The notes below the pieces were generated by a model. It ran no database searches. It worked only from the letters and a program-made list of their open reading frames with translations, and was not told the origin of the DNA. Of a DNA stretch of 32,000 bases, positions 615 to 25,952 are shown piece after piece (the stretch's first letter is position 1; the number at the start of each line of letters is the position of its first letter). Made by a program: the position numbers and the translations under genes. Source of the stretch: Psychrobacter sp. HD31 (GTDB lineage Bacteria > Pseudomonadota > Gammaproteobacteria > Pseudomonadales > Moraxellaceae); the NCBI RefSeq assembly GCF_051097895.1, contig NZ_CP142525.1:30001-62000 (forward strand), in the 5' to 3' direction.

Positions 615-2111
615 ATGTCAGATGTAAAAACAGTCAAACAGCTTATCAATGGTCAGTTTGTCGAGTCCAACACCAGCGAGTGGATTGACCTAACCAACCC
701 AGCCAACCAAGAGCTGATTGCCAAAGTACCCCAAACCACCCAAGACGAAATTAATGAAGCGGTGGCGTGTGCCAAAGAGGCATTTAAAACGTGGCGTAAA
801 ACCGCTGTCACTAAACGTGCAGGGATTTTCTTAAAGTATCAACAGCTGATTAATGAACATATGGATGAATTGGCTGAGATGTTGACCGAAGAACAAGGCA
901 AAACCATTGCCGATGCTAGGGGCGATGTATTCCGTGGCTTGCAAGTGGTGGAGCATGCAGCAGGGATTGGCAATTTACAACAGGGTGATTTTGTTGAAAA
1001 TGTGGCAACGGGCGTCGATACTTATAGCATTTGGCAACCGCTGGGCGTTTGTGCTGGTATTACGCCGTTTAACTTCCCTGCGATGATTCCACTCTGGATG
1101 TACCCAATGGCGATTGCCACTGGTAATACTTTTGTCTTGAAGCCCTCTGAGCAGAATCCAATGGTGACCATGCGTTTGATTGAGCTTGCCATTGAAGCAG
1201 GTGTGCCAGAAGGCGTACTGAATGTGGTACACGGCGGTAAGCCAACGGTCGATGCGATTTGTGACCACCCTGATATTAAGGCAGTGTCGTTTGTTGGTTC
1301 GACGGCAGTTGGTACGCATGTTTATAACCGTTCAAATGCCGCTGGCAAGCGTGTGCAGTGCATGATGGGAGCAAAAAACCATGCGGTCATTCTACCTGAC
1401 GCCAATAAAGAACAAACTCTAAACCAGTTAGCTGGGGCAGCATTCGGTGCGGCAGGACAGCGTTGTATGGCGCTGTCTGTGGTTGTGCTGGTTGGTCAAG
1501 CAAAAGACTGGGTAGAAGATATTAAAACCAAGGCAGCAAGCTTAGTGGTTGCTGCTGGTAAAGATGACAAAGACTTAGGTCCATTGATTTCACAAAAAGC
1601 GAAGGAACGCTGTGAAAAACTGATTCAACAAGGCGTGGACGAAGGGGCTGAGCTATTGCTAGACGGTCGTGGTGTGGTGGTTGAAGGCTCAGAAAATGGT
1701 AACTTCGTTGGTCCTACTATTTTAAATAATGTCACCAAAGAGATGACCTGCTATACACAAGAAATCTTTGGTCCTGTGTTATGTATCATGTATGTCGATA
1801 GCTTGGATGATGCGATTGAGCTGGTTAATGCCAATCCAAACGGCAATGGTACGGCCATCTTTACTCAATCTGGGGCAGCCGCTCATAAATTCCAGTCGGA
1901 TATTGATGTTGGTCAAGTAGGCATTAACTTGCCAATTCCAGTACCTCTACCAATGTTCTCATTCTCTGGCTCTCGTGCCAGTAAGCTGGGTGATTTAGGA
2001 CCTTATGGTAAACAAGCGGTTCAATTCTATACGCAAACCAAGACGGTCACGGCTCGTTGGTTTGATGATGAAGCGAGTAAGGGTAAAGTAAATACCACGA
2101 TTTCGATGTAA
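615..2111 (+). CDS. mmsA: Methylmalonate-semialdehyde dehydrogenase (CoA-acylating)
   Basis: 498 aa aldehyde dehydrogenase with [10 protein letters not shown] and the catalytic-Cys context GQRCMALS. The AAGGAA RBS lies 8 nt upstream of the ATG. It sits in a valine-catabolism gene context. Confidence 0.93.
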
Positions 2112-2247
2112 TATTTTACCCAAAAACTTAATCTACCCTATATTATGAGGGGTCAAAGTTGCTCAAGGTACTTCATGTATATTTTCGCTTCTTTTCCTCG
2201 GTATATTAATTTTTGGATTTGATATAGATATTTTATAAAATAAACTT

Positions 2248-2273
2248 GTGCGACTTGATAGGTTAAGTCGCAC
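2248..2273. other. Perfect 9-bp stem hairpin in the long mmsA-downstream spacer
   Basis: GTGCGACTT (2248-2256) and AAGTCGCAC (2265-2273) flank an 8-nt loop. There is no U-tract, so it is not a canonical terminator. Confidence 0.5.
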
Positions 2274-2399
2274 GGATTCAGTCTTATCATGTCATTAGGG
2301 ATTTTCGTGGAGATTTTTAATGAGGTGGTGAGGTTTTATTAAATTTGGTACCAGTGGTGGTACCCGAACAGATACGCAGTCTTTTAATGACTACATCAT

Positions 2400-2475
2400 A
2401 AACCCTTTCTAACTCTTAAAGAAAGTGGAAAACTGTACCCCATACTTTAACAAGTTTAGTTGTCAACAACAAAGC
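2400..2475 (+). repeat. Decayed direct copy of the DUF559 cassette's right inverted repeat plus ~40 bp of its downstream flank
   Basis: A hand alignment with 2997-3075 shows shared blocks AAACCC, CTAAC, AAAGTGGA, AACTG, (T/C)ACCCC, TA.TTT and AACAAAG in the same order, with a few small gaps. Confidence 0.6.
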
Positions 2476-2492
2476 TAGACTTTCGAGCGGAC

Positions 2493-2527
2493 GTTCCTCC
2501 ACTTTTCAAGGGGAGGCTAGGAGGGGT
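2493..2527 (+). repeat. Left inverted repeat of the DUF559 cassette
   Basis: The sequence is GTTCCTCCACTTTTCAAGGGGAGGCTAGGAGGGGT. It also forms an internal hairpin, CCTCCACTT-TTC-AAGGGGAGG (9-bp stem, 1 mismatch). Confidence 0.85.
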
Positions 2528-2595
2528 TGACGAAGTTGGTTAGAAACAAAACTAGCCAGCCTCAAGAAACCTCCCAAAAAAACAGGAAAACCAAA

Positions 2596-2988
2596 ATGAT
2601 TGACAAAGTCTTTAATAAAAAAGACCAAAAATCAAAACGCAAACAACTAAGAAACAACGCCACCAGTCCAGAACAAATATTATGGCAATATCTGAAAGGA
2701 AAACAACTTGGCGTAAAATTTAGAAGACAATCTGGAATTGATGAATACATTGTAGATTTCTTCTCACCAGAAATTAAACTGGCTATCGAAATAGATGGTG
2801 AAAGTCATTTTAATGATGAAGCAAAACAATATGATGAACTTAGAACAGAATTTATCAACTCACTAAATATAGAAGTCATCAGATTTACAAATAAAGATGT
2901 AACTCAAAATATAATGGGCGTTTGTCAGGCAATAAGAGCAGTTATTAGCAGAAAACTGTTAGAACAGCAAATTCAGCTTAATGAATAA
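2596..2988 (+). CDS. DUF559 domain protein (Vsr/restriction-endonuclease-like fold)
   Basis: The motifs are family-typical: ATSPEQILWQYLKG..LGVKFRRQ, YIVDFF, LAIEIDGESH, YDELRTEF and VIRFTNKDV. I prefer the ATG at 2596 (AGGAAA RBS ~9 nt upstream) over the ORF-track TTG at 2527, which lies inside the left IR. Confidence 0.8.
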   Translation: MIDKVFNKKDQKSKRKQLRNNATSPEQILWQYLKGKQLGVKFRRQSGIDEYIVDFFSPEIKLAIEIDGESHFNDEAKQYDELRTEFINSLNIEVIRFTNKDVTQNIMGVCQAIRAVISRKLLEQQIQLNE

Positions 2989-2998
2989 GCTAACAAAA

Positions 2999-3033
2999 AC
3001 CCCTCCTAACCTCCCCTTGAAAAGTGGAGGAAC
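2999..3033 (+). repeat. Right inverted repeat of the DUF559 cassette
   Basis: The sequence is ACCCCTCCTAACCTCCCCTTGAAAAGTGGAGGAAC, the reverse complement of 2493-2527 except for one position (C2517 vs T). Confidence 0.85.
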
Positions 3034-3143
3034 TGGCACCCCGTATTTTGCGTTGTTCAGTTTTTAAAAACAAAGATTGACTATCTTACTTACTAAAGAT
3101 AAAAAATGTAAACCATTTAAACCCACAACACAAGGATACCCCA

Positions 3144-4310
3144 ATGAATTTTTCTCTAAACGAAGACCAGCAAGCCTTTGCTGAACTTGCCAGCAACTTC
3201 GCCAGCAAATCAATGGCACCCTTTGCAGATGAATGGGACAAAACGGCTCACTTCCCAGTCGAGATGTTTAAAGAAGCAGGTGAACTTGGTTTCCTCGGCT
3301 TATACACCAACGAAGAAGTTGGTGGTATGGGCTTATCACGCTTAGATTCCTCCATCATCTTTGAAAAGCTTGCCTACGGTGACACCTCAGCAGCTGCCTT
3401 TATGACCATTCACAACATGGTCGCTTGGATGATTGGTGAATTTGCCAAACCAGAAGTTGCCGAAGCGTGGATTCCAGACATGATGACAGGTGATAAGCTT
3501 GGCAGTTATTGCCTAACGGAACCAAATGCAGGCTCAGACGCAGGCTCACTGACCACCAAAGCGGTGAAATCAGACGATGGCAAACACTACTTGCTCACGG
3601 GGCAAAAAATGTTTATCTCTGGTGCTGGAGCGACCGACGTACTGGTGGTCATGGCTCGCACAGGTGAAGACGGCGCAAAAGGCATTTCTGCATTTGTTGT
3701 CGACGCCAAAGCAGAAGGCATCACCTATGGCAAAAATGAACATAAAATGGGCTGGAAAAACCAACCCACTGCCGCCGTACATTTTAAAGACGTGAAAGTA
3801 CCTGCCAAAAACTTACTGGGCGAAGAAGGACAAGGCTTTACCTTTGCCATGAAGGGCTTAGACGGTGGGCGTATCAACATCGCCACTTGTGCAGTGGGGA
3901 CGGCTCAAGCCGCTCTGGAACGTGCCGTACAATATGTACAGGAACGTAGCCAGTTTGGACGTACACTGGATAAATTCCAAAACGTGCAGTTCAAACTTGC
4001 CGATATGCTAACCGAACTCACTGCCGCACGGCAAATGGTCAGACTGGCAGCATACCACCTAGACACAGGCAGTCCAGACGCCAGTAGCTATTGTGCAATG
4101 GCAAAACGATTAGCGACCGACCTCAGCTTTAAAGTGGCGAATGAAGCCCTACAGCTGCACGGTGGTTATGGCTATCTGCAAGAATACCCACTCGAACGCC
4201 ATGTGCGTGACTTGCGTGTCCACCAAATCCTTGAAGGCACCAATGAAGTGATGCGACTCATCGTCTCTCGTAAAATGATGGATATGGATACTTTAAAAAG
4301 AATGCAGTAA
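3144..4310 (+). CDS. Acyl-CoA dehydrogenase (isobutyryl-CoA dehydrogenase by context)
   Basis: 388 aa with YCLTEPNAGSDA and the C-terminal LHGGYGYLQEYPLERHVRDLRVHQILEGTNE. The AAGGA RBS lies 7 nt upstream. Substrate assignment is from operon context only. Confidence 0.88.
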   Translation: MNFSLNEDQQAFAELASNFASKSMAPFADEWDKTAHFPVEMFKEAGELGFLGLYTNEEVGGMGLSRLDSSIIFEKLAYGDTSAAAFMTIHNMVAWMIGEFAKPEVAEAWIPDMMTGDKLGSYCLTEPNAGSDAGSLTTKAVKSDDGKHYLLTGQKMFISGAGATDVLVVMARTGEDGAKGISAFVVDAKAEGITYGKNEHKMGWKNQPTAAVHFKDVKVPAKNLLGEEGQGFTFAMKGLDGGRINIATCAVGTAQAALERAVQYVQERSQFGRTLDKFQNVQFKLADMLTELTAARQMVRLAAYHLDTGSPDASSYCAMAKRLATDLSFKVANEALQLHGGYGYLQEYPLERHVRDLRVHQILEGTNEVMRLIVSRKMMDMDTLKRMQ

Positions 4311-4336
4311 GGCGTGGGCTTTACCCATCTTAAGCT

Positions 4337-4559
4337 AACAATTTTAAATATTTTGAAGCGGAAACCTGCTTTTCGCTTGTATCTTGCTACCCGATGGCGT
4401 TGCTCTCTATGGCTAAGTGCGTTTCAGACTTTGAGCAATCACCCTTAGCCATGTTCGCAATAGCCATCGGTCACACAAGGTGAGGAGGGAAATAGCGAAG
4501 CACTGCTTCGCCCCGACGCAAGGGAAAATTTGTAATTTTCCGCTTCAATCAGGGCTAAG
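4337..4559 (+). repeat. Structured intergenic repeat, copy A (MITE-like, no ORF)
   Basis: It is homologous to 8051-8219. It has perfect 12-bp terminal inverted repeats TTGAAGCGGAAA (4353-4364) and TTTCCGCTTCAA (4537-4548), and a central ~80-nt hairpin at 4391-4470. Confidence 0.75.
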
Positions 4560-4664
4560 TTCAACACCTCGTATTTTTTTGAATGTGTTTGGCTGTTTGA
4601 GGTAGGATTTTTTAAAGGTGCTTAAAAAGCACTCTAAAACTAACATCTTATAATAGGGATATTT

Positions 4665-5063
4665 ATGAAAAACCAAATCATCACATCTTTGACTTTCCAA
4701 GATGGAAATGCTGAAAACGCTATGAACTTTTATGTTGAGGTATTTGCAAACGCTCATATCATTAATGTGAACAGATGGGGTGAAAATGCACCTGTTGCAG
4801 AAGGTAAAATCATGCAAGCCACCTTTGAGATTAATGGCACTATCTTTATGTGTAGTGATAGCCCAGCGATACATAATTGGGATTTTAGCCCAGCTGTTTC
4901 AAATTACCTAGAATGTGATAATGAAGCTGAAATAGCTACTTTATTCTCGAAACTTTCTGAAAATGGCACTGTTACAATGCCATTAGACAACTATGGATTT
5001 AGTCAAAAATTTGCTTGGGTACTAGACCAATTTGGGGTGTCTTGGCAATTAAATTTGGCTTAA
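4665..5063 (+). CDS. VOC-superfamily protein, PhnB-like (3-demethylubiquinone-9 3-methyltransferase-domain family)
   Basis: 132 aa with ITSLTFQDGNAENAMNFYVEVF...ATFEINGTIFMCSDSP...DQFGVSWQLN, the pattern I associate with PhnB/PF06983 proteins. The AGGGA RBS lies 6 nt upstream. It is AT-richer than the flanking operon genes. Confidence 0.65.
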   Translation: MKNQIITSLTFQDGNAENAMNFYVEVFANAHIINVNRWGENAPVAEGKIMQATFEINGTIFMCSDSPAIHNWDFSPAVSNYLECDNEAEIATLFSKLSENGTVTMPLDNYGFSQKFAWVLDQFGVSWQLNLA

Positions 5064-5154
5064 ATATTTCTACAATAAATTATGTTTTTAAAGAGTTGAA
5101 CTGAGTATTAACGCACCAATAAAATAACATTAATCAAACCAAAAGGAAAACAAC

Positions 5155-5934
5155 ATGACGGACTACACCAACCTAGACCTATCAATAAACGGACATATCG
5201 CTAACCTCACTTTAAACAATCCACCAGCACACACATGGACACTCGACAGCCTAAAATCACTCAAACAACTTGTGGCAGACTTAAACGCCAATAAAAGCGT
5301 GCAAGCCCTAGTTATTCATGGTGATGGCGAAAAGTTCTTTAGTGCAGGGGCAGACCTAAATAGCTTTGCCAGTACAGACAAAGCACCAGCCACCGATATG
5401 GCGATTGCCTTTGGCGAAGCCTTTGAAGCACTATCAAACTTCCGTGGTGTTTCTATTGCCTGTATCAATGGTTATGCGATGGGAGGCGGACTTGAGTTTG
5501 CCCTAGCCTGTGACATTCGCATTGCCGAAGACCACGCCCAAATGGCACTGCCAGAACTGTCAGTTGGCTTGCTTCCTTGTGCTGGCGGTACACAAAACTT
5601 ACCTTGGTTAGTCGGTGAAGGCTGGGCAAAACGCATGATTTTATGTGGTGAGCGTATCAAGGCAGATAAAGCCTTACAAATTGGGCTGGTCGAAGAAGTG
5701 GTAGAAAAAGGCAAAGGGCTAGAAAATGCCCTCGCACTTGCCGAAAAGGTCGCCAAGCAATCACCCGATGCCATCGCTTCAAGTAAAAACCTCATCCAAT
5801 CGGCACGCACCAATCCACCACGCTATAATCTAATCAATGAGCGTGAAGACTTTATCAAACTATGGGACGGCGAAAACCAAATGGAAGGCGTGAATGCGTT
5901 TTTAGAAAAACGACCTGCTGAGTGGAAGGTTTAG
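5155..5934 (+). CDS. Enoyl-CoA hydratase (crotonase family; methacrylyl-CoA hydratase by context)
   Basis: 259 aa with FFSAGADL and GYAMGGGLEFALACDIRIA. The AAGGAAAA RBS is present. Confidence 0.88.
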   Translation: MTDYTNLDLSINGHIANLTLNNPPAHTWTLDSLKSLKQLVADLNANKSVQALVIHGDGEKFFSAGADLNSFASTDKAPATDMAIAFGEAFEALSNFRGVSIACINGYAMGGGLEFALACDIRIAEDHAQMALPELSVGLLPCAGGTQNLPWLVGEGWAKRMILCGERIKADKALQIGLVEEVVEKGKGLENALALAEKVAKQSPDAIASSKNLIQSARTNPPRYNLINEREDFIKLWDGENQMEGVNAFLEKRPAEWKV

Positions 5935-5940
5935 CATCAT

Positions 5941-6420
5941 ATGGCATTGATTCATGAGTTTACAACAGCCAAACAAGCTGATATTCAAAAAATCTTAGAG
6001 AATGTCAACTTACTAAGGGATGCAAGTGTTGTATCCCCAGTGGTTGGTATTCATGATGATTTTATCTTGTATTTTGCAGATTCGATGAAGTGGATAGAAA
6101 CTACTAATCCTAGAAAAAAGCCGGAAGAGCATATACCCCATCAGAGCTTATGCTACTATGGTCTTACTCTATTTCTACCTAATCAAGTGACGCAGTTTAA
6201 ACGTGTTATTGAAGCTTGGTATAGTATGTTTAGCCTAGCACCAGATGAGTTTATTATAACTGGTAGTTGGACAGAAGTTGTCGGTGAAGAAAATAGTGGT
6301 AAATATGACAAAATTAAAGCAATCAAAGCTGAAATTTTAGAAACATTATCAGAGCTAATTCAACTTTGTGTAGACGTGGAAAAAGATGACAGTTTGTGTT
6401 TATTCCATTGGGGAATTTGA
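5941..6420 (+). CDS. Hypothetical protein (no family recognised)
   Basis: 159-aa ORF starting 6 nt after the hydratase stop, with GGAAGG ~12 nt upstream. It is AT-richer than its neighbours, and I recognise no motifs. Confidence 0.5.
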   Translation: MALIHEFTTAKQADIQKILENVNLLRDASVVSPVVGIHDDFILYFADSMKWIETTNPRKKPEEHIPHQSLCYYGLTLFLPNQVTQFKRVIEAWYSMFSLAPDEFIITGSWTEVVGEENSGKYDKIKAIKAEILETLSELIQLCVDVEKDDSLCLFHWGI

Positions 6421-6811
6421 TAAAAACGCTATTCGATGAAGCGGTAGATGCTCTAAATACTGACACGTAGTCTTATCAGATGAAGAAAGTAAACTTATCG
6501 TTGATAAATTTGAAAGTTCATTCCCATTTTTATTGACTGGAAGTGGCAAAATTGATTGGAATAATATCCAGAAATATCAAACTATTAATACAATTTCTGA
6601 TATCTTATCAATCTAAAGTTACTCAATATCTAAAAACTGCTTTATTATATGGAATGACTCCTCTTTAGCAGTTATTCAAAGCAAATTAAGCCACGTCATA
6701 ACTGTATTTGATGATATAACAACAGTGAGTTTTGACACTTGGATATTTATTCCTGAGACAAACAATGTGATTGAAAACACATTTGGCAGTTTAAAAATTA
6801 CAACAAATTAA
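6417..6811 (+). pseudogene. Broken small gene (one frameshift near 6461-6470 and one in-frame TAA at 6614)
   Basis: Frame 0 reads (L)IKTLFDEAVDALNTDT* (6417-6470). The frame of 6464 then reads HVVLSDEESKLIVDKFESSFPFLLTGSGKIDWNNIQKYQTINTISDILSI*SYSISKNCFIIWNDSSLAVIQSKLSHVITVFDDITTVSFDTWIFIPETNNVIENTFGSLKITTN*. The text is protein-like across the disruptions. Its start overlaps the upstream stop (TTGA). Confidence 0.5.
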
Positions 6812-6842
6812 AGTTCGAATTTAATTTAACAAGGAAATAACG

Positions 6843-8039
6843 ATGAAGGAATCAACCGAAACCAACCAATCACAACCCATACTTATAGACACCATCGCCA
6901 CCGCTAGCGGTCATGCCATCGGCACACTGACACTCAACGACCCAAAGGCTCTGAATGCCCTGAGTGTCGACATGTGTCAGATGATAAGCAAGCAACTCAG
7001 CAACTGGCAAAATGACGATAACATTGTTGCCATTCTGCTTAAAGGCAGTGGTGACAAAGCATTCTGCGCAGGAGGCAATATCCGCAAACTGTATGAAAGC
7101 ATGCTGGATAATCCACCCATGCCCAACCCTTACGCCGAAGAGTTCTTCTCCAGCGAATACAGCCTATTCCGCCAAATGCACTTCTATAACAAACCCATTG
7201 TCCTATGGGCGAACGGCATCGTCATGGGCGGTGGCATGGGATTAATGGCAATGTGTAGCCACAGAGTGGTTACCGAAACCACCCGTTTTGCCATGCCAGA
7301 AATCACCATCGGACTCTACCCAGATGCCACAGGCAGTTGGTTGCTACAACGCTTCCCTGCCAAGCTTGGGCTATTCCTGGGATTAACAGGTGCTAACTGC
7401 AATGGAGCAGATGCCTTAATTGGCAACATGGCTGAGTTTGCTGTTACCAGTGAGCAATATGATGACATGGTACACGCCTTGAGTAGTGCCGATTGGGCAA
7501 ACAGTGCTGACTTACATGACACCGCCAGCCAAGCCCTCGCCACCGTCCACCATACTGAGCAACTTGCCGAAAGCAACCTTATCAACCACTGGCAAGCCCT
7601 ACAAGCCATTGTCAACGCAGGTGACATTCATGCCATTGACCAAGTCTTACAAAATGCCGAATTAGCCGAAAAATACAAAGATGACAAATGGATGAGCCGA
7701 GCCATCAGCACCTATCAGCATGGTTGCCCTGTGACTGCTGGATTGACTTTTGAGGCATTTAAACGAGCCAAAAAACTGTCACTTGAGCAAATCCTATATA
7801 TGGAAATGAACCTATCACTGCATTGTGCCAACAACCCAGACTTTAGAGAAGGTGTGCGAGCCTTGCTTATCGACAAAGACCGCACCCCAAAATGGAGTAA
7901 AACTCTTGCCGAATGTGGTGGTAAAGAAGGGCGTTCCTATATCGACTCGCACTTTAACTCACCCTATGATGAAGGGAAGCATCCCTTTGAAAACTGGTTA
8001 GATAATGGTAGCAAATCAGCAGACTTGGTGAACATTTAA
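6843..8039 (+). CDS. 3-hydroxyisobutyryl-CoA hydrolase (ECH_2 crotonase subfamily)
   Basis: 398 aa with FCAGGNI and NGIVMGGGMGL, plus the long C-terminal extension typical of HIBYL-CoA hydrolases. The AAGGAAA RBS is present. Confidence 0.88.
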   Translation: MKESTETNQSQPILIDTIATASGHAIGTLTLNDPKALNALSVDMCQMISKQLSNWQNDDNIVAILLKGSGDKAFCAGGNIRKLYESMLDNPPMPNPYAEEFFSSEYSLFRQMHFYNKPIVLWANGIVMGGGMGLMAMCSHRVVTETTRFAMPEITIGLYPDATGSWLLQRFPAKLGLFLGLTGANCNGADALIGNMAEFAVTSEQYDDMVHALSSADWANSADLHDTASQALATVHHTEQLAESNLINHWQALQAIVNAGDIHAIDQVLQNAELAEKYKDDKWMSRAISTYQHGCPVTAGLTFEAFKRAKKLSLEQILYMEMNLSLHCANNPDFREGVRALLIDKDRTPKWSKTLAECGGKEGRSYIDSHFNSPYDEGKHPFENWLDNGSKSADLVNI

Positions 8040-8050
8040 ACCGTTTTTTA

Positions 8051-8219
8051 AACAGTTATTGAGTTTTTGGAGCGGAAACCTGCCATCCGCTATTATCTTG
8101 CTTGCTGATAGCGTGTGTTCTATGTGCCTGAGTGCGTTCCAGACTTTGAGCGACCATCCTCAACCACAGACCACATCACCATCAGCTTCACAAGGATAAC
8201 CGCTACTGTCAGGGCTAAA
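8051..8219 (+). repeat. Structured intergenic repeat, copy B (shorter; degenerate right end)
   Basis: It is homologous to 4337-4559 and shares the same start (TTGGAGCGGAAACCTGC) and end (TCAGGGCTAA). The central hairpin at 8105-8185 has an apical 26 nt that is 22/26 identical to copy A. It lacks ~55 bp that are present in copy A. Confidence 0.75.
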
Positions 8220-8353
8220 CCGCTCTCATTGCATAATTTGAGTTTCATAACTCGACACCAACACACTAACTAAAGTTCACAAACAACACAAATAGTAGGC
8301 AAACCCTACATATTCCTCAATAAGGAAATTCACTCAACACAAGGAATGTAACT

Positions 8354-9277
8354 ATGAGTAACGTAAAAACTTCTATCCAAACAATCGGCTTTATCGGACT
8401 TGGCAACATGGGTAAACCGATGGCAGATAACCTACTTAAAAATGGCTTTTCACTAAAAGTCTTTGACCTTAACGAAGCTGTTCTTGCTCAAATGGCAGAG
8501 CAAGGTGCAACAGTCTGCGACTCTCCAATTAGTGCCACCACAGATGTCGATATGGTCATCAGCATGCTCCCAGCAGGTCAACACGTCAAGAGCGTTTATC
8601 TTGGTAGTGATGACAGTACAGGCGTATTTGACAGTTTAGACCCAAGCACCCTCGTTGCTGACTGTAGCACCATTGCAGCAGCCGATGCCAGAGCTGTTGC
8701 CGAAGTCGCTAAACAAAAAGGCATTCAGTTTGTCGATGCACCTGTATCAGGTGGTACAGGCGGTGCAACAGCAGGCACGCTTACCTTTATCGTTGGTGGT
8801 GAAGCAAAAGCTTTTGACCAAGTAAAACCAGTGCTAGAAGCCATGGGTAAAAATATATTCCACGCTGGCGACCACGGAGCAGGGCAGGTTGCTAAAATCT
8901 GTAACAACATGCTGTTGGGCATTTTAATGTCTGGCACAGCAGAAGCCATCAATCTAGGCGTGAAAAATGGCTTAGACCCAAAAGTTCTCTCTGATATCAT
9001 GCTTCAAAGCTCAGGGCGTAACTGGACATTAGAAGTTTACAATCCTTATCCAAACGTCATTGATACCGTACCATCGAGCAAGGGTTACACAGGTGGATTT
9101 ATGAGTAAGCTGATGCTAAAAGACATGAACCTAGCCAAAACCACAGCTGATGATACGGGCGTGCAAACCCCAATGGCTGACCAAGCTCGTGATATGTACA
9201 CCGCTCATGTTGAAGACCATGCGGATGCTGATTTTTCTAGTATCATGGCGGTATTTGATGACAGTGTTTTAAAGTAA
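8354..9277 (+). CDS. mmsB: 3-hydroxyisobutyrate dehydrogenase
   Basis: 307 aa with the N-terminal IGFIGLGNMGKPMA Rossmann motif and GAGQVAKICNN. It sits in the operon with mmsA. Confidence 0.92.
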   Translation: MSNVKTSIQTIGFIGLGNMGKPMADNLLKNGFSLKVFDLNEAVLAQMAEQGATVCDSPISATTDVDMVISMLPAGQHVKSVYLGSDDSTGVFDSLDPSTLVADCSTIAAADARAVAEVAKQKGIQFVDAPVSGGTGGATAGTLTFIVGGEAKAFDQVKPVLEAMGKNIFHAGDHGAGQVAKICNNMLLGILMSGTAEAINLGVKNGLDPKVLSDIMLQSSGRNWTLEVYNPYPNVIDTVPSSKGYTGGFMSKLMLKDMNLAKTTADDTGVQTPMADQARDMYTAHVEDHADADFSSIMAVFDDSVLK

Positions 9278-25876: not shown

Positions 25877-25952
25877 GGGTTGTTAGCTCAGTTGGTAGAG
25901 CAGTTGACTTTTAATCAATTGGTCGCAGGTTCGAATCCTGCACAACCCACCA
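25877..25952 (+). tRNA. tRNA-Lys (anticodon UUU), CCA encoded
   Basis: A manual cloverleaf works: acceptor GGGTTGT/ACAACCC, D arm GCTC-AGTTGGTA-GAGC, anticodon arm GTTGA-CTTTTAA-TCAAT, T arm GCAGG-TTCGAAT-CCTGC, then ACCA. It is nearly identical to my memory of E. coli tRNA-Lys. Confidence 0.95.

Follow-up and report, generated by a model that had tools for sequence, protein, structure and literature searches.

We describe here an element of about 150 nt that occurs twice, as copies A and B, in a 32,000-nt stretch of DNA from Psychrobacter sp. HD31 (contig NZ_CP142525.1, positions 30,001 to 62,000 of the forward strand; this whole stretch is called the window in the following). The element is a long-stem variant of the Flavo-1 RNA motif (RF01705) in Moraxellaceae and behaves as a mobile intergenic repeat, and its fold is selected on one single strand, the minus strand of the window, be it as RNA or as DNA. 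Both copies are solitary insertions within a plus-strand valine-catabolism operon that occupies bases 615-9277 of the window.

A sequence-only reading of the window had drawn attention to two 80-nt hairpins, A and B, with a conserved apex and stems that co-vary. Every sequence fact given there for the hairpin coordinates, the identity of the apices and the A.C appositions of copy B was found to be correct when read directly from the window. The apices of A (TGCGTTTCAGACTTTGAGCAATCACC) and B (TGCGTTCCAGACTTTGAGCGACCATC) are identical at 22 of 26 positions, the stem of hairpin A pairs CCGATGGC (4391-4398) with GCCATCGG (4463-4470), and in hairpin B CTGATAGC (8105-8112) lies opposite CACCATCAG (8177-8185). 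The pair C4392-G4469 of A is replaced by T8106-A8184 in B, a double change, and A8110.C8180 and C8112.A8178 are plus-strand A.C appositions in copy B. The hairpins themselves stand, but they do not form the unit: the similarity between A and B reaches well past the hairpin limits, and the hairpins are variable rods within the longer mobile repeat, whose near-invariant ends (TGGAGCGGAAACCTGC..CGCT at one side and ..CCGCT..TCAGGGCTAA at the other) lie outside of them. Both copies start with (T)G(G/A)AGCGGAAACCTGC-nnnn-CGCT and finish with CCGCT-n7-TCAGGGCTAA, and on the minus strand the base of the fold is near-invariant, reading 5' UUAGCCCUGA-nnG-nAGCGG-UAUCC ... GAUA-nA-AGCGG-AnnG-CAGG-UUUCCGCUCCA 3'. 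In the rod of about 40 base pairs the sequence is free, while the pairing and the total length (149-153 nt in full copies) are fixed; the apical loop comprises 25 nt and is of several types. Copy A is longer because of a nested 61-nt insert and has its end motifs at 4358-4369 and 4549-4558; its outer end can form a local hairpin (AAGCG/CGCTT) and in addition pairs, through its CCTG, with the CAGG at the opposite end. A covariance model (model R1) built without copy A detects this copy with 53.2 bits (E = 4e-14) and scores 136 bits on copy B. When the same model was run over the 32-kb window with filters off, no copy beyond A and B was found.

Scanning metagenome sequences with the pattern AGCGGAAACCTGCNNNNCGCT yielded at least 120 loci, and the true copies among the matches listed lie on low-GC contigs, most of them from the projects PDWI01, PDWJ01 and RCMY01 and belonging to related Moraxellaceae. 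One of the metagenome contigs (designated L with a number) carries a 76%-identical orthologue of the window operon. At least about 39 further copies, either full, truncated or reduced to solo remnants, were identified on 33 metagenome contigs, some of them added by running the covariance model on those contigs. Full copies form about ten sequence classes. Between classes the two ends are 85-87% identical, compared to 51% for the apex and 41-45% for the rod arms, so that conservation within the family lies in the ends. The conservation of the apex, as observed between A and B, does not extend to the family: the A/B apex, which reads CUCAAAGUCUGRAACGCAC on the minus strand, is one among several apex types. 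Solo ends are present on L011, L053, L054, L068, L077, L079, L087 and L110. A blastn search of a plasmid collection with copy B gave no match, and a scan of a genome collection with the strict pattern GCGGAAACCTGCNNNNCGCTNNNATCTT gave one chance match only, in a coding region of 61% GC.

In a permissive Rfam scan the minus strand of A and B, and only this strand, matched Flavo-1 end to end, and no other family was found for the two copies. Copy B reached 41.0 bits (E = 1.6e-7), just below the gathering score of 42, copy A 21.4 bits with a 160-nt insertion, and nine relatives 32.5-40.7 bits; all these scores fall below the threshold because of an insertion of 73-160 nt at the apex of the model. 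Positions 1-76 of the Flavo-1 model are aligned end to end on the minus strand in every copy, and the base helices and internal-loop nucleotides of Flavo-1 (UAGCC..GAU.G.AG.GG ... A.CG.A.AGC..G) are present on one strand. Scanning viral contigs with the inner-end motif, we found a canonical short Flavo-1 (58 bits) adjoining a terminase gene on the phage-like contig L131. Its base, UUAGCCCUGAUAGGAGCGGUAUCC...GAUAUAGCGGAUAGCAGG, is the same as in the window copies almost to the nucleotide, and its apical stem measures only ~10 bp. Because this base is common to both and the apical stem is longer in the window, the element is a long-rod variant of Flavo-1. The model confirmed neither of the two outer-end pattern matches on viral contigs (L127, L128) and left five of the six inner-end matches unconfirmed. 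On L131 (7050-7400) Flavo-1 is bordered on both sides by another repeat, CCTCACCCCC..CCCCTCTCC-AAGGAGAGGG..AGCTACACTCATG.

The window element and Flavo-1 thus have in common the strand, a near-identical base (UUAGCCCUGA..AGCGG..AUCC / GAU..AGCGG.A.AGCAGG), covarying pairs, an apical stem of variable length, many copies per genome and the lack of a known function. They differ in that the apical stem of the window element is 75-90 nt longer, that its host belongs to the Moraxellaceae (Gammaproteobacteria) and not to the Bacteroidetes or Spirochaetes, that it has an extra 3' segment, UUUCCGCUCCA, able to form an alternative terminal hairpin, and that its overall length is fixed and its apical loop semi-conserved. 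Flavo-1 was originally described from 239 instances with covariation and variable-length stems and without a function, and is classed as a small RNA in Rfam on grounds of covariation (Weinberg et al. 2010, PMC2864571). In Flavobacterium psychrophilum its matches lie sense or antisense to transcribed regions indiscriminately, and many of them are untranscribed (PMC9723704). A hammerhead-like CUGAnGA/GAAA core noticed by eye was discarded, as the CCUG is paired and Rfam finds no ribozyme.

The minimum-energy folds of A and B have nine pair columns in common, of which one is changed on both sides and two are changed to G.U; with so few shared columns, the comparison of two copies cannot carry a claim of covariation alone. 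At the level of the family, 17 full-length copies were aligned with MAFFT, the structure not being consulted, and RNAalifold found 33 pairs on this alignment, 20 of them with compensatory changes. For the covariation test a 58-pair rod was derived from the individual folds. It contained 78.7% paired cells (67.0 +/- 0.8% shuffled), 37 of the 58 pairs were changed on both sides (26.2 +/- 2.3 shuffled), as were 132 cells (54 shuffled), and the covariation score amounted to 0.350 (0.164 shuffled); in none of these measures was any of 500 shuffles as high. A covarying stem of variable length above the base, as is typical of Flavo-1, is therefore present in the window element as well. When the 3' partner was moved by 1-3 columns as a control, 32-41% of the cells were paired.

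It could be argued that the element is a functionless, decaying palindromic remnant whose covariation is only apparent, the copies being related by descent or whole hairpins having been exchanged by gene conversion. The shuffle control indeed leaves relatedness in and may inflate covariation, the copies on L002 and L003 show 5-7 A.C against 1 G.U, and solo ends as well as deletions between short direct repeats do occur. The controls with the slid partner, however, are unaffected by relatedness, and the same independence applies to the classes with unalignable arms, which all retain 40-55 pairs. About ten classes keep these base pairs and the nearly constant length despite an arm identity of 41-45%, and the ends are 85-100% identical where the intergenic flanks are unalignable and the neighbouring gene is 79-85% identical in DNA. 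The strand asymmetry described below would also run opposite to that caused by deamination of the exposed coding strand. We regard decay as highly implausible, and the proposal of the sequence-only reading that structure rather than sequence is selected is supported by the family-level covariation of independent copies.

The same reading had suggested the minus strand, which runs antisense to the operon, as the relevant one, and this agrees with the folding of both strands and with the type of mismatches in the stems. With DNA parameters hairpin A is stable on both strands (-20.2 kcal/mol minus, -19.0 plus; z about -5.3 on either strand), whereas hairpin B is stable on the minus strand only (-13.9 kcal/mol, z -2.4; plus -7.3, z -0.09). 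With RNA parameters the whole B element folds with -53.2 kcal/mol on the minus strand (z -3.8) and with -37.6 on the plus strand (z -1.2). The minus strand, which corresponds to the sense strand of Flavo-1, gives the more stable fold in 19 of the 22 copies, the mean difference being 7.5 kcal/mol. In a strand-neutral test each arm was aligned to the reverse complement of the other arm and both kinds of transition were scored alike; this gave 76 G.U on the minus strand against 25 A.C (p = 4e-7), and 43 against 10 when one copy per class was used (p = 6e-6). For the window copies the respective counts are 6 and 0 in B and 2 and 2 in A. Counts made on the alignment agree with this test, the structure in that case coming from minus-strand folds. 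Folding of purine/pyrimidine-recoded sequences, tried as another strand-neutral structure, gave mis-registered structures and no signal, and the arm alignment was used instead. Taken together with the Flavo-1 match, which exists on the minus strand only, these data identify the strand. Since the signal is strand-specific, a symmetric cruciform, which had been put forward as one option, is disfavoured, while an antisense RNA and a hairpin in single-stranded DNA both stand.

Regarding the orientation of the neighbouring genes, we found that in 18 of 20 cases the gene past the outer end (the 3' end in the RNA sense) is convergent to the element and has its stop codon at a distance of 6-144 nt. 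Genes on the inner (5') side are of mixed orientation (17 opposite, 10 same). An element placed in this way could, as a repeat of the ERIC, Correia or REP kind, be the 3' end or an intercistronic part of the upstream gene's transcript, where, co-transcribed in plus orientation, its hairpin would stabilise, process or partly terminate the message. Miniature inverted-repeat transposable elements of the ERIC and Correia type, known from Enterobacteria and Neisseria, are imperfect intergenic palindromes of 100-155 nt and form RNA hairpins whose strength depends on orientation. The element resembles them in size, in being an imperfect palindrome and in its intergenic position inside or between transcription units. 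In favour of an action on the mRNA, the gene reading into the element ends at this short distance in 18 of 20 cases, both window copies lie between co-directional operon genes and the plus-strand RNA still folds (-48 kcal/mol for A, -38 for B). The fold is, however, selected on the opposite strand: as this strand runs antisense to the operon, the mRNA of the operon contains only the complement, a weaker hairpin, the wobbles become A.C in plus-strand RNA, and hairpin B is then no better than shuffled sequence. Nor does a U-tract follow the hairpin. Compared with the ERIC and Correia elements, no terminal inverted repeat with a TA duplication can be defined, the copies are far more divergent and show compensatory change, and the strand-specific fold is antisense to the neighbouring gene. 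An action on the mRNA is, in our estimate, quite improbable.

The distribution of the copies is that of a mobile repeat. Near-identical interiors are present at unrelated loci (98% identity for L037/L062, 96% for L050/L121 and 98% for L029/L026) with flanks of 9-27% identity, and conversely the same locus can hold different interiors, as in L125/L114, where the flanks are 92% and 95% identical and the interior 53%. On L106 (503-552) the left flank of L037 (95%) is joined to the right flank of L062 (89%) across a truncated element, which suggests a rearrangement between two copies. Among the remnants are outer ends standing alone and copies with internal deletions, delimited by short direct repeats such as CCGCT or AGGGC. 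The site of copy B is free of the element in L002, which has an 80-codon open reading frame (ORF) instead, and in L005, which has a 43-nt spacer. Five relatives carry an element at the site of copy A, directly behind the acyl-CoA dehydrogenase stop codon: L002/L003, L034, L056 and, with a solo remnant, L011. In those contigs the end of the dehydrogenase gene shows 79-85% DNA identity to the window, the protein of L034 is 100% identical, and homology ends at the stop codon. The interior found at this site in the relatives is of a different class than in the window, and the genes on the inner side differ too: a glyoxalase-family gene in the window, four unknown genes in L002, an AIPR gene in L034, and DUF7716 plus a methyltransferase in L056. 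The outer junction consistently reads ..T(G)|(G/T)AGCGG. No parent insertion sequence was found for the element, and insertion into intrinsic terminators was rejected, as no consistent hairpin with T-tract directly precedes the outer junction.

Further sequences are nested in or adjoin the element. The 60-nt unit nested in copy A recurs at differing positions in or beside the element on L002 (5690-5760), L003, L034, L056, L100 and L075. Its consensus is TGAGGAGGGnAnTAGCnAAGCAnTGCTTnGCCCCGAyGCAAG..., with two small hairpins, and in the data set examined it occurs only inside or adjoining the Flavo-1-type element, at no fewer than four positions, as if it targeted this element. Flank module R1 also follows the element in L026, L029, L037, L062, L084, L114, L121 and L125, and flank module R2 in L050, L034, L056, L075, L053 and L087. 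Module R1 is similar to the apex of a truncated copy together with the arm after it, and module R2 to a second, degenerate inner end (ACCGCT...GGTTAG), which suggests nested or tandem partial copies.

We noticed that the element is often located at the borders of variable cassettes, many of which contain defence genes. At the locus downstream of a 2-hydroxyacid dehydrogenase gene, pairs of elements in inverted orientation, with the outer ends pointing outward, enclose a cargo of 2-5 kb that varies by contig. Thoeris, made up of ThsA (SIR2-STALD) and the TIR protein ThsB, is one such cargo; others at the same locus are a SIR2 protein, AIPR, GmrSD, a methyltransferase with PRTase-CE and an ORC/CDC6-like protein, and a 1560-residue P-loop protein. 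Between contigs with the same resident element homology is lost exactly at the UUUAGCC boundary of the element. Adjoining other copies we found the MunI restriction enzyme with an MT-A70 methyltransferase, and PIN-domain toxins.

From these observations we tentatively propose, with a probability of about 45%, that the element is a structure-specific substrate of a recombinase or transposase encoded elsewhere, probably in the form of single-stranded DNA, the analogues being REPINs and integron attC sites. Selection acts on the fold of one single strand, the minus strand of the window, and the folded strand would serve as substrate for an enzyme encoded elsewhere in the genome, which may recognise the conserved base and the bulges by structure, as is the case for attC sites and REPINs. 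Such a substrate would account for new intergenic copies, for the exchange of interiors where the site stays the same and for the position at cassette borders.

The attC sites of integrons are defined by secondary structure rather than sequence: their ends are conserved while the centre varies, bases at set positions stay unpaired, and it is one specific strand that is active when folded. The sites, 57 to 141 nt in length, border exchangeable gene cassettes. All of these traits, namely definition by structure, conserved ends, variable centre, fixed unpaired bases, a strand-specific fold and a place at cassette borders, are also seen in the element. It is not itself an attC site, since RYYYAAC / GTTRRRY boxes are missing and its ends are TGGAGCGGAAACCTGC and TCAGGGCTAA. 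The element also differs in that its pairs are inverted around cassettes rather than arranged in direct arrays, and in its nearly constant length. Neither an IntI integrase nor attI was seen in the window or on the contigs of relatives, which are too short to exclude a distant integrase.

REPINs, which are hairpin-forming doublets mobilised by RAYT transposases, likewise have conserved ends and a spacer limited only in length and hairpin capacity, together with compensatory changes and singlet remnants (Bertels and Rainey 2011, PMC3116915), and their fold was proposed to form in single-stranded DNA or in mRNA (PMC3116915). The element shares with them the extragenic position, the multiple copies, highly conserved ends, a middle in which only the length and the hairpin capacity are constrained, frequent compensatory changes and singlet remnants. 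In contrast to REPINs, its two ends pair but are not inverted copies of one repetitive extragenic palindromic (REP) sequence, and the order of AGCGG and CCTG differs; it is about 150 nt long, compared to a spacing of 71 bp between the two conserved 16-mers of a GI REPIN doublet (PMC3116915); and its copies fall into about ten very divergent classes instead of a cloud around one master sequence. No Y1 gene is present in the window.

Several points weigh against the proposed recombinase substrate. No recombinase or transposase linked to the element was found in the sequences searched, and the only Y1/RAYT-like (Y1_Tnp) gene seen, at 1935-2435 of L010, has a different REP family in its flanks (786-815 and 2452-2550), GTAGGTTGG...CCCAAC (GTAGGTTGGkn12rnCCCAAC); membership in a RAYT/REPIN system was rejected, as this gene is flanked by the other REP family and not by the element. 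In none of the copies compared could a target-site duplication, an excision junction or a clean empty site be defined. The plus strand has a positive local GC skew, which weakly suggests that the selected minus strand is the leading-strand template and less often single-stranded. The layout of inverted pairs around cassettes is essentially that of one chromosomal locus in several strains, and the cassette-border arrangement is for this reason a lead and not a rule. Finally, RNA accounts for the G.U/G.T asymmetry and for the conserved, purine-rich internal loops no less well than single-stranded DNA does. The REP family of L010 is absent from the window; it adjoins Flavo-1-type copies in L002, L003, L026, L084 and L100.

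The good fit with RNA leads to the possibility that the copies are genuine Flavo-1 RNAs: small and structured, made from the minus strand in antisense to the operon, and with the RNA as the functional product. Such an RNA might bind a protein via the conserved base and the apical loop, and the copies would be paralogous RNA genes or would have spread through an RNA intermediate. It is in line with the assignment of Flavo-1 to the small RNAs in Rfam by covariation (PMC2864571), with the strong preference for G.U on one strand and with the conserved unpaired purines of the base helices and the bulge at a fixed position, which resemble recognition elements between RNA and protein; moreover, the gene on the 5' side is co-oriented in ten cases, which would allow transcription of the sense strand as a 3' untranslated region. 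On the other hand, a search for signals of a minus-strand transcript at A and B yielded no sigma-70-like promoter and no intrinsic terminator, and B has a terminator-like site (8309-8295) upstream of it on that strand. In 18 of 20 cases the sense strand runs antisense to the gene adjoining it upstream. The flank modules, read by eye, contain no consistent -35/-10 pair. Consistent expression is also lacking in the published flavobacterial transcriptome (PMC9723704), and the copies at cassette borders, the solo remnants and the replacement of interiors at one locus would be left unexplained. All in all we consider a small-RNA gene family somewhat unlikely.

Returning to the recombinase substrate, a still bolder form of it would be that Flavo-1-class hairpins are structure- and strand-specific recombination sites of an undescribed cassette-exchange system, parallel to attC but unrelated to it, which we hold to be improbable. 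If true, a Flavo-1-class system would move phage-defence and other accessory genes to fixed intergenic sites after conserved genes in Bacteroidetes and Moraxellaceae, and the invariant hairpin base would be recognised by a recombinase whose gene lies elsewhere in the genome. Flavo-1 has been part of Rfam since 2010 without a function, and flavobacterial transcriptomics could not place it. What is added here is a long-rod form with the same invariant base in a different phylum, the selection of the fold on one strand, the behaviour as a mobile repeat and the position after gene ends and at cassette borders. The orphan RNA motif thereby becomes open to test: one can ask which molecule serves as substrate, in which strand, and by what protein the base is recognised. 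In terms of annotation, the hairpins in the catabolic operon are insertions and not operon-specific regulators. The coordinates of all features are given in Table 1.

Table 1. Features of the two Flavo-1-type copies and their surroundings in the window, and contigs of the cassette locus.
Feature	Position	Strand	Remarks
mmsA	615-2111	+	first gene of the valine-catabolism operon
DUF559 gene	2527-2988	+	between mmsA and acyl-CoA dehydrogenase gene
acyl-CoA dehydrogenase gene	3144-4310	+	copy A follows
copy A, Flavo-1-type repeat	4354-4560	-	207 nt; 44 nt past acyl-CoA dehydrogenase stop codon
copy A outer conserved end AAGCGGAAACCTGCTTTTCGCTT	4356-4378	-	invariant segment in family alignment
copy A variable rod (hairpin A)	4391-4470	-	apex 4418-4443
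nested unrelated small repeat TGAGGAGGGAAATAGCGAAGCACTGCTTCGCCCCGACGCAAGGG...	4481-4541	+	within copy A, rod to inner end
copy A inner conserved end CCGCTTCAATCAGGGCTAA	4540-4558	-	minus strand 5' UUAGCCCUGAUUGAAGCGG
flank module R1 (GTTCAACACCTCGTATTTTTTTGAAT...GGTGCTTAAAAAGCAC)	4559-4640	.	adjoins inner end of many copies
glyoxalase-family gene	4665-5063	+	downstream of copy A
enoyl-CoA hydratase gene, then unknown ORF		+	between glyoxalase-family gene and hydrolase gene
3-hydroxyisobutyryl-CoA hydrolase gene	6843-8039	+	copy B follows
copy B, Flavo-1-type repeat	8068-8218	-	151 nt; 29 nt past hydrolase stop (6843-8039), 136 nt before mmsB
copy B outer conserved end GAGCGGAAACCTGCCATCCGCT	8070-8091	-	
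copy B variable rod (hairpin B)	8105-8185	-	apex 8133-8158
copy B inner conserved end CCGCTACTGTCAGGGCTAA	8200-8218	-	
flank module R2 (ACCGCTCTCATTGCATAATTTGAG)	8219-8250	.	similar to degenerate second inner end
mmsB	8354-9277	+	last operon gene, downstream of copy B
2-hydroxyacid dehydrogenase locus, contigs	L088 353-3983; L110, L054, L079, L103, L038		

Apart from the two copies, the operon contains other genes that vary between relatives. The DUF559 ORF, which belongs to a Vsr-like endonuclease family, is flanked by inverted repeats of 36 nt (2493-2528 / 2998-3033) that are 97% complementary, and its place is taken by other genes in relatives (DUF2834 in L002, EamA in L005); together with its repeats it looks like a separate small mobile cassette. 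The valine operon is further broken up by the glyoxalase-family gene, of the glyoxalase / 3-demethylubiquinone-9 3-methyltransferase family, and by a 159-codon ORF (5941-6420) without a Pfam match, both of which look like accessory insertions because they are absent at these positions in L002 and L005. At the gathering threshold, the sole Rfam match in the window is a tRNA gene on the plus strand (25877-25949, 79 bits).

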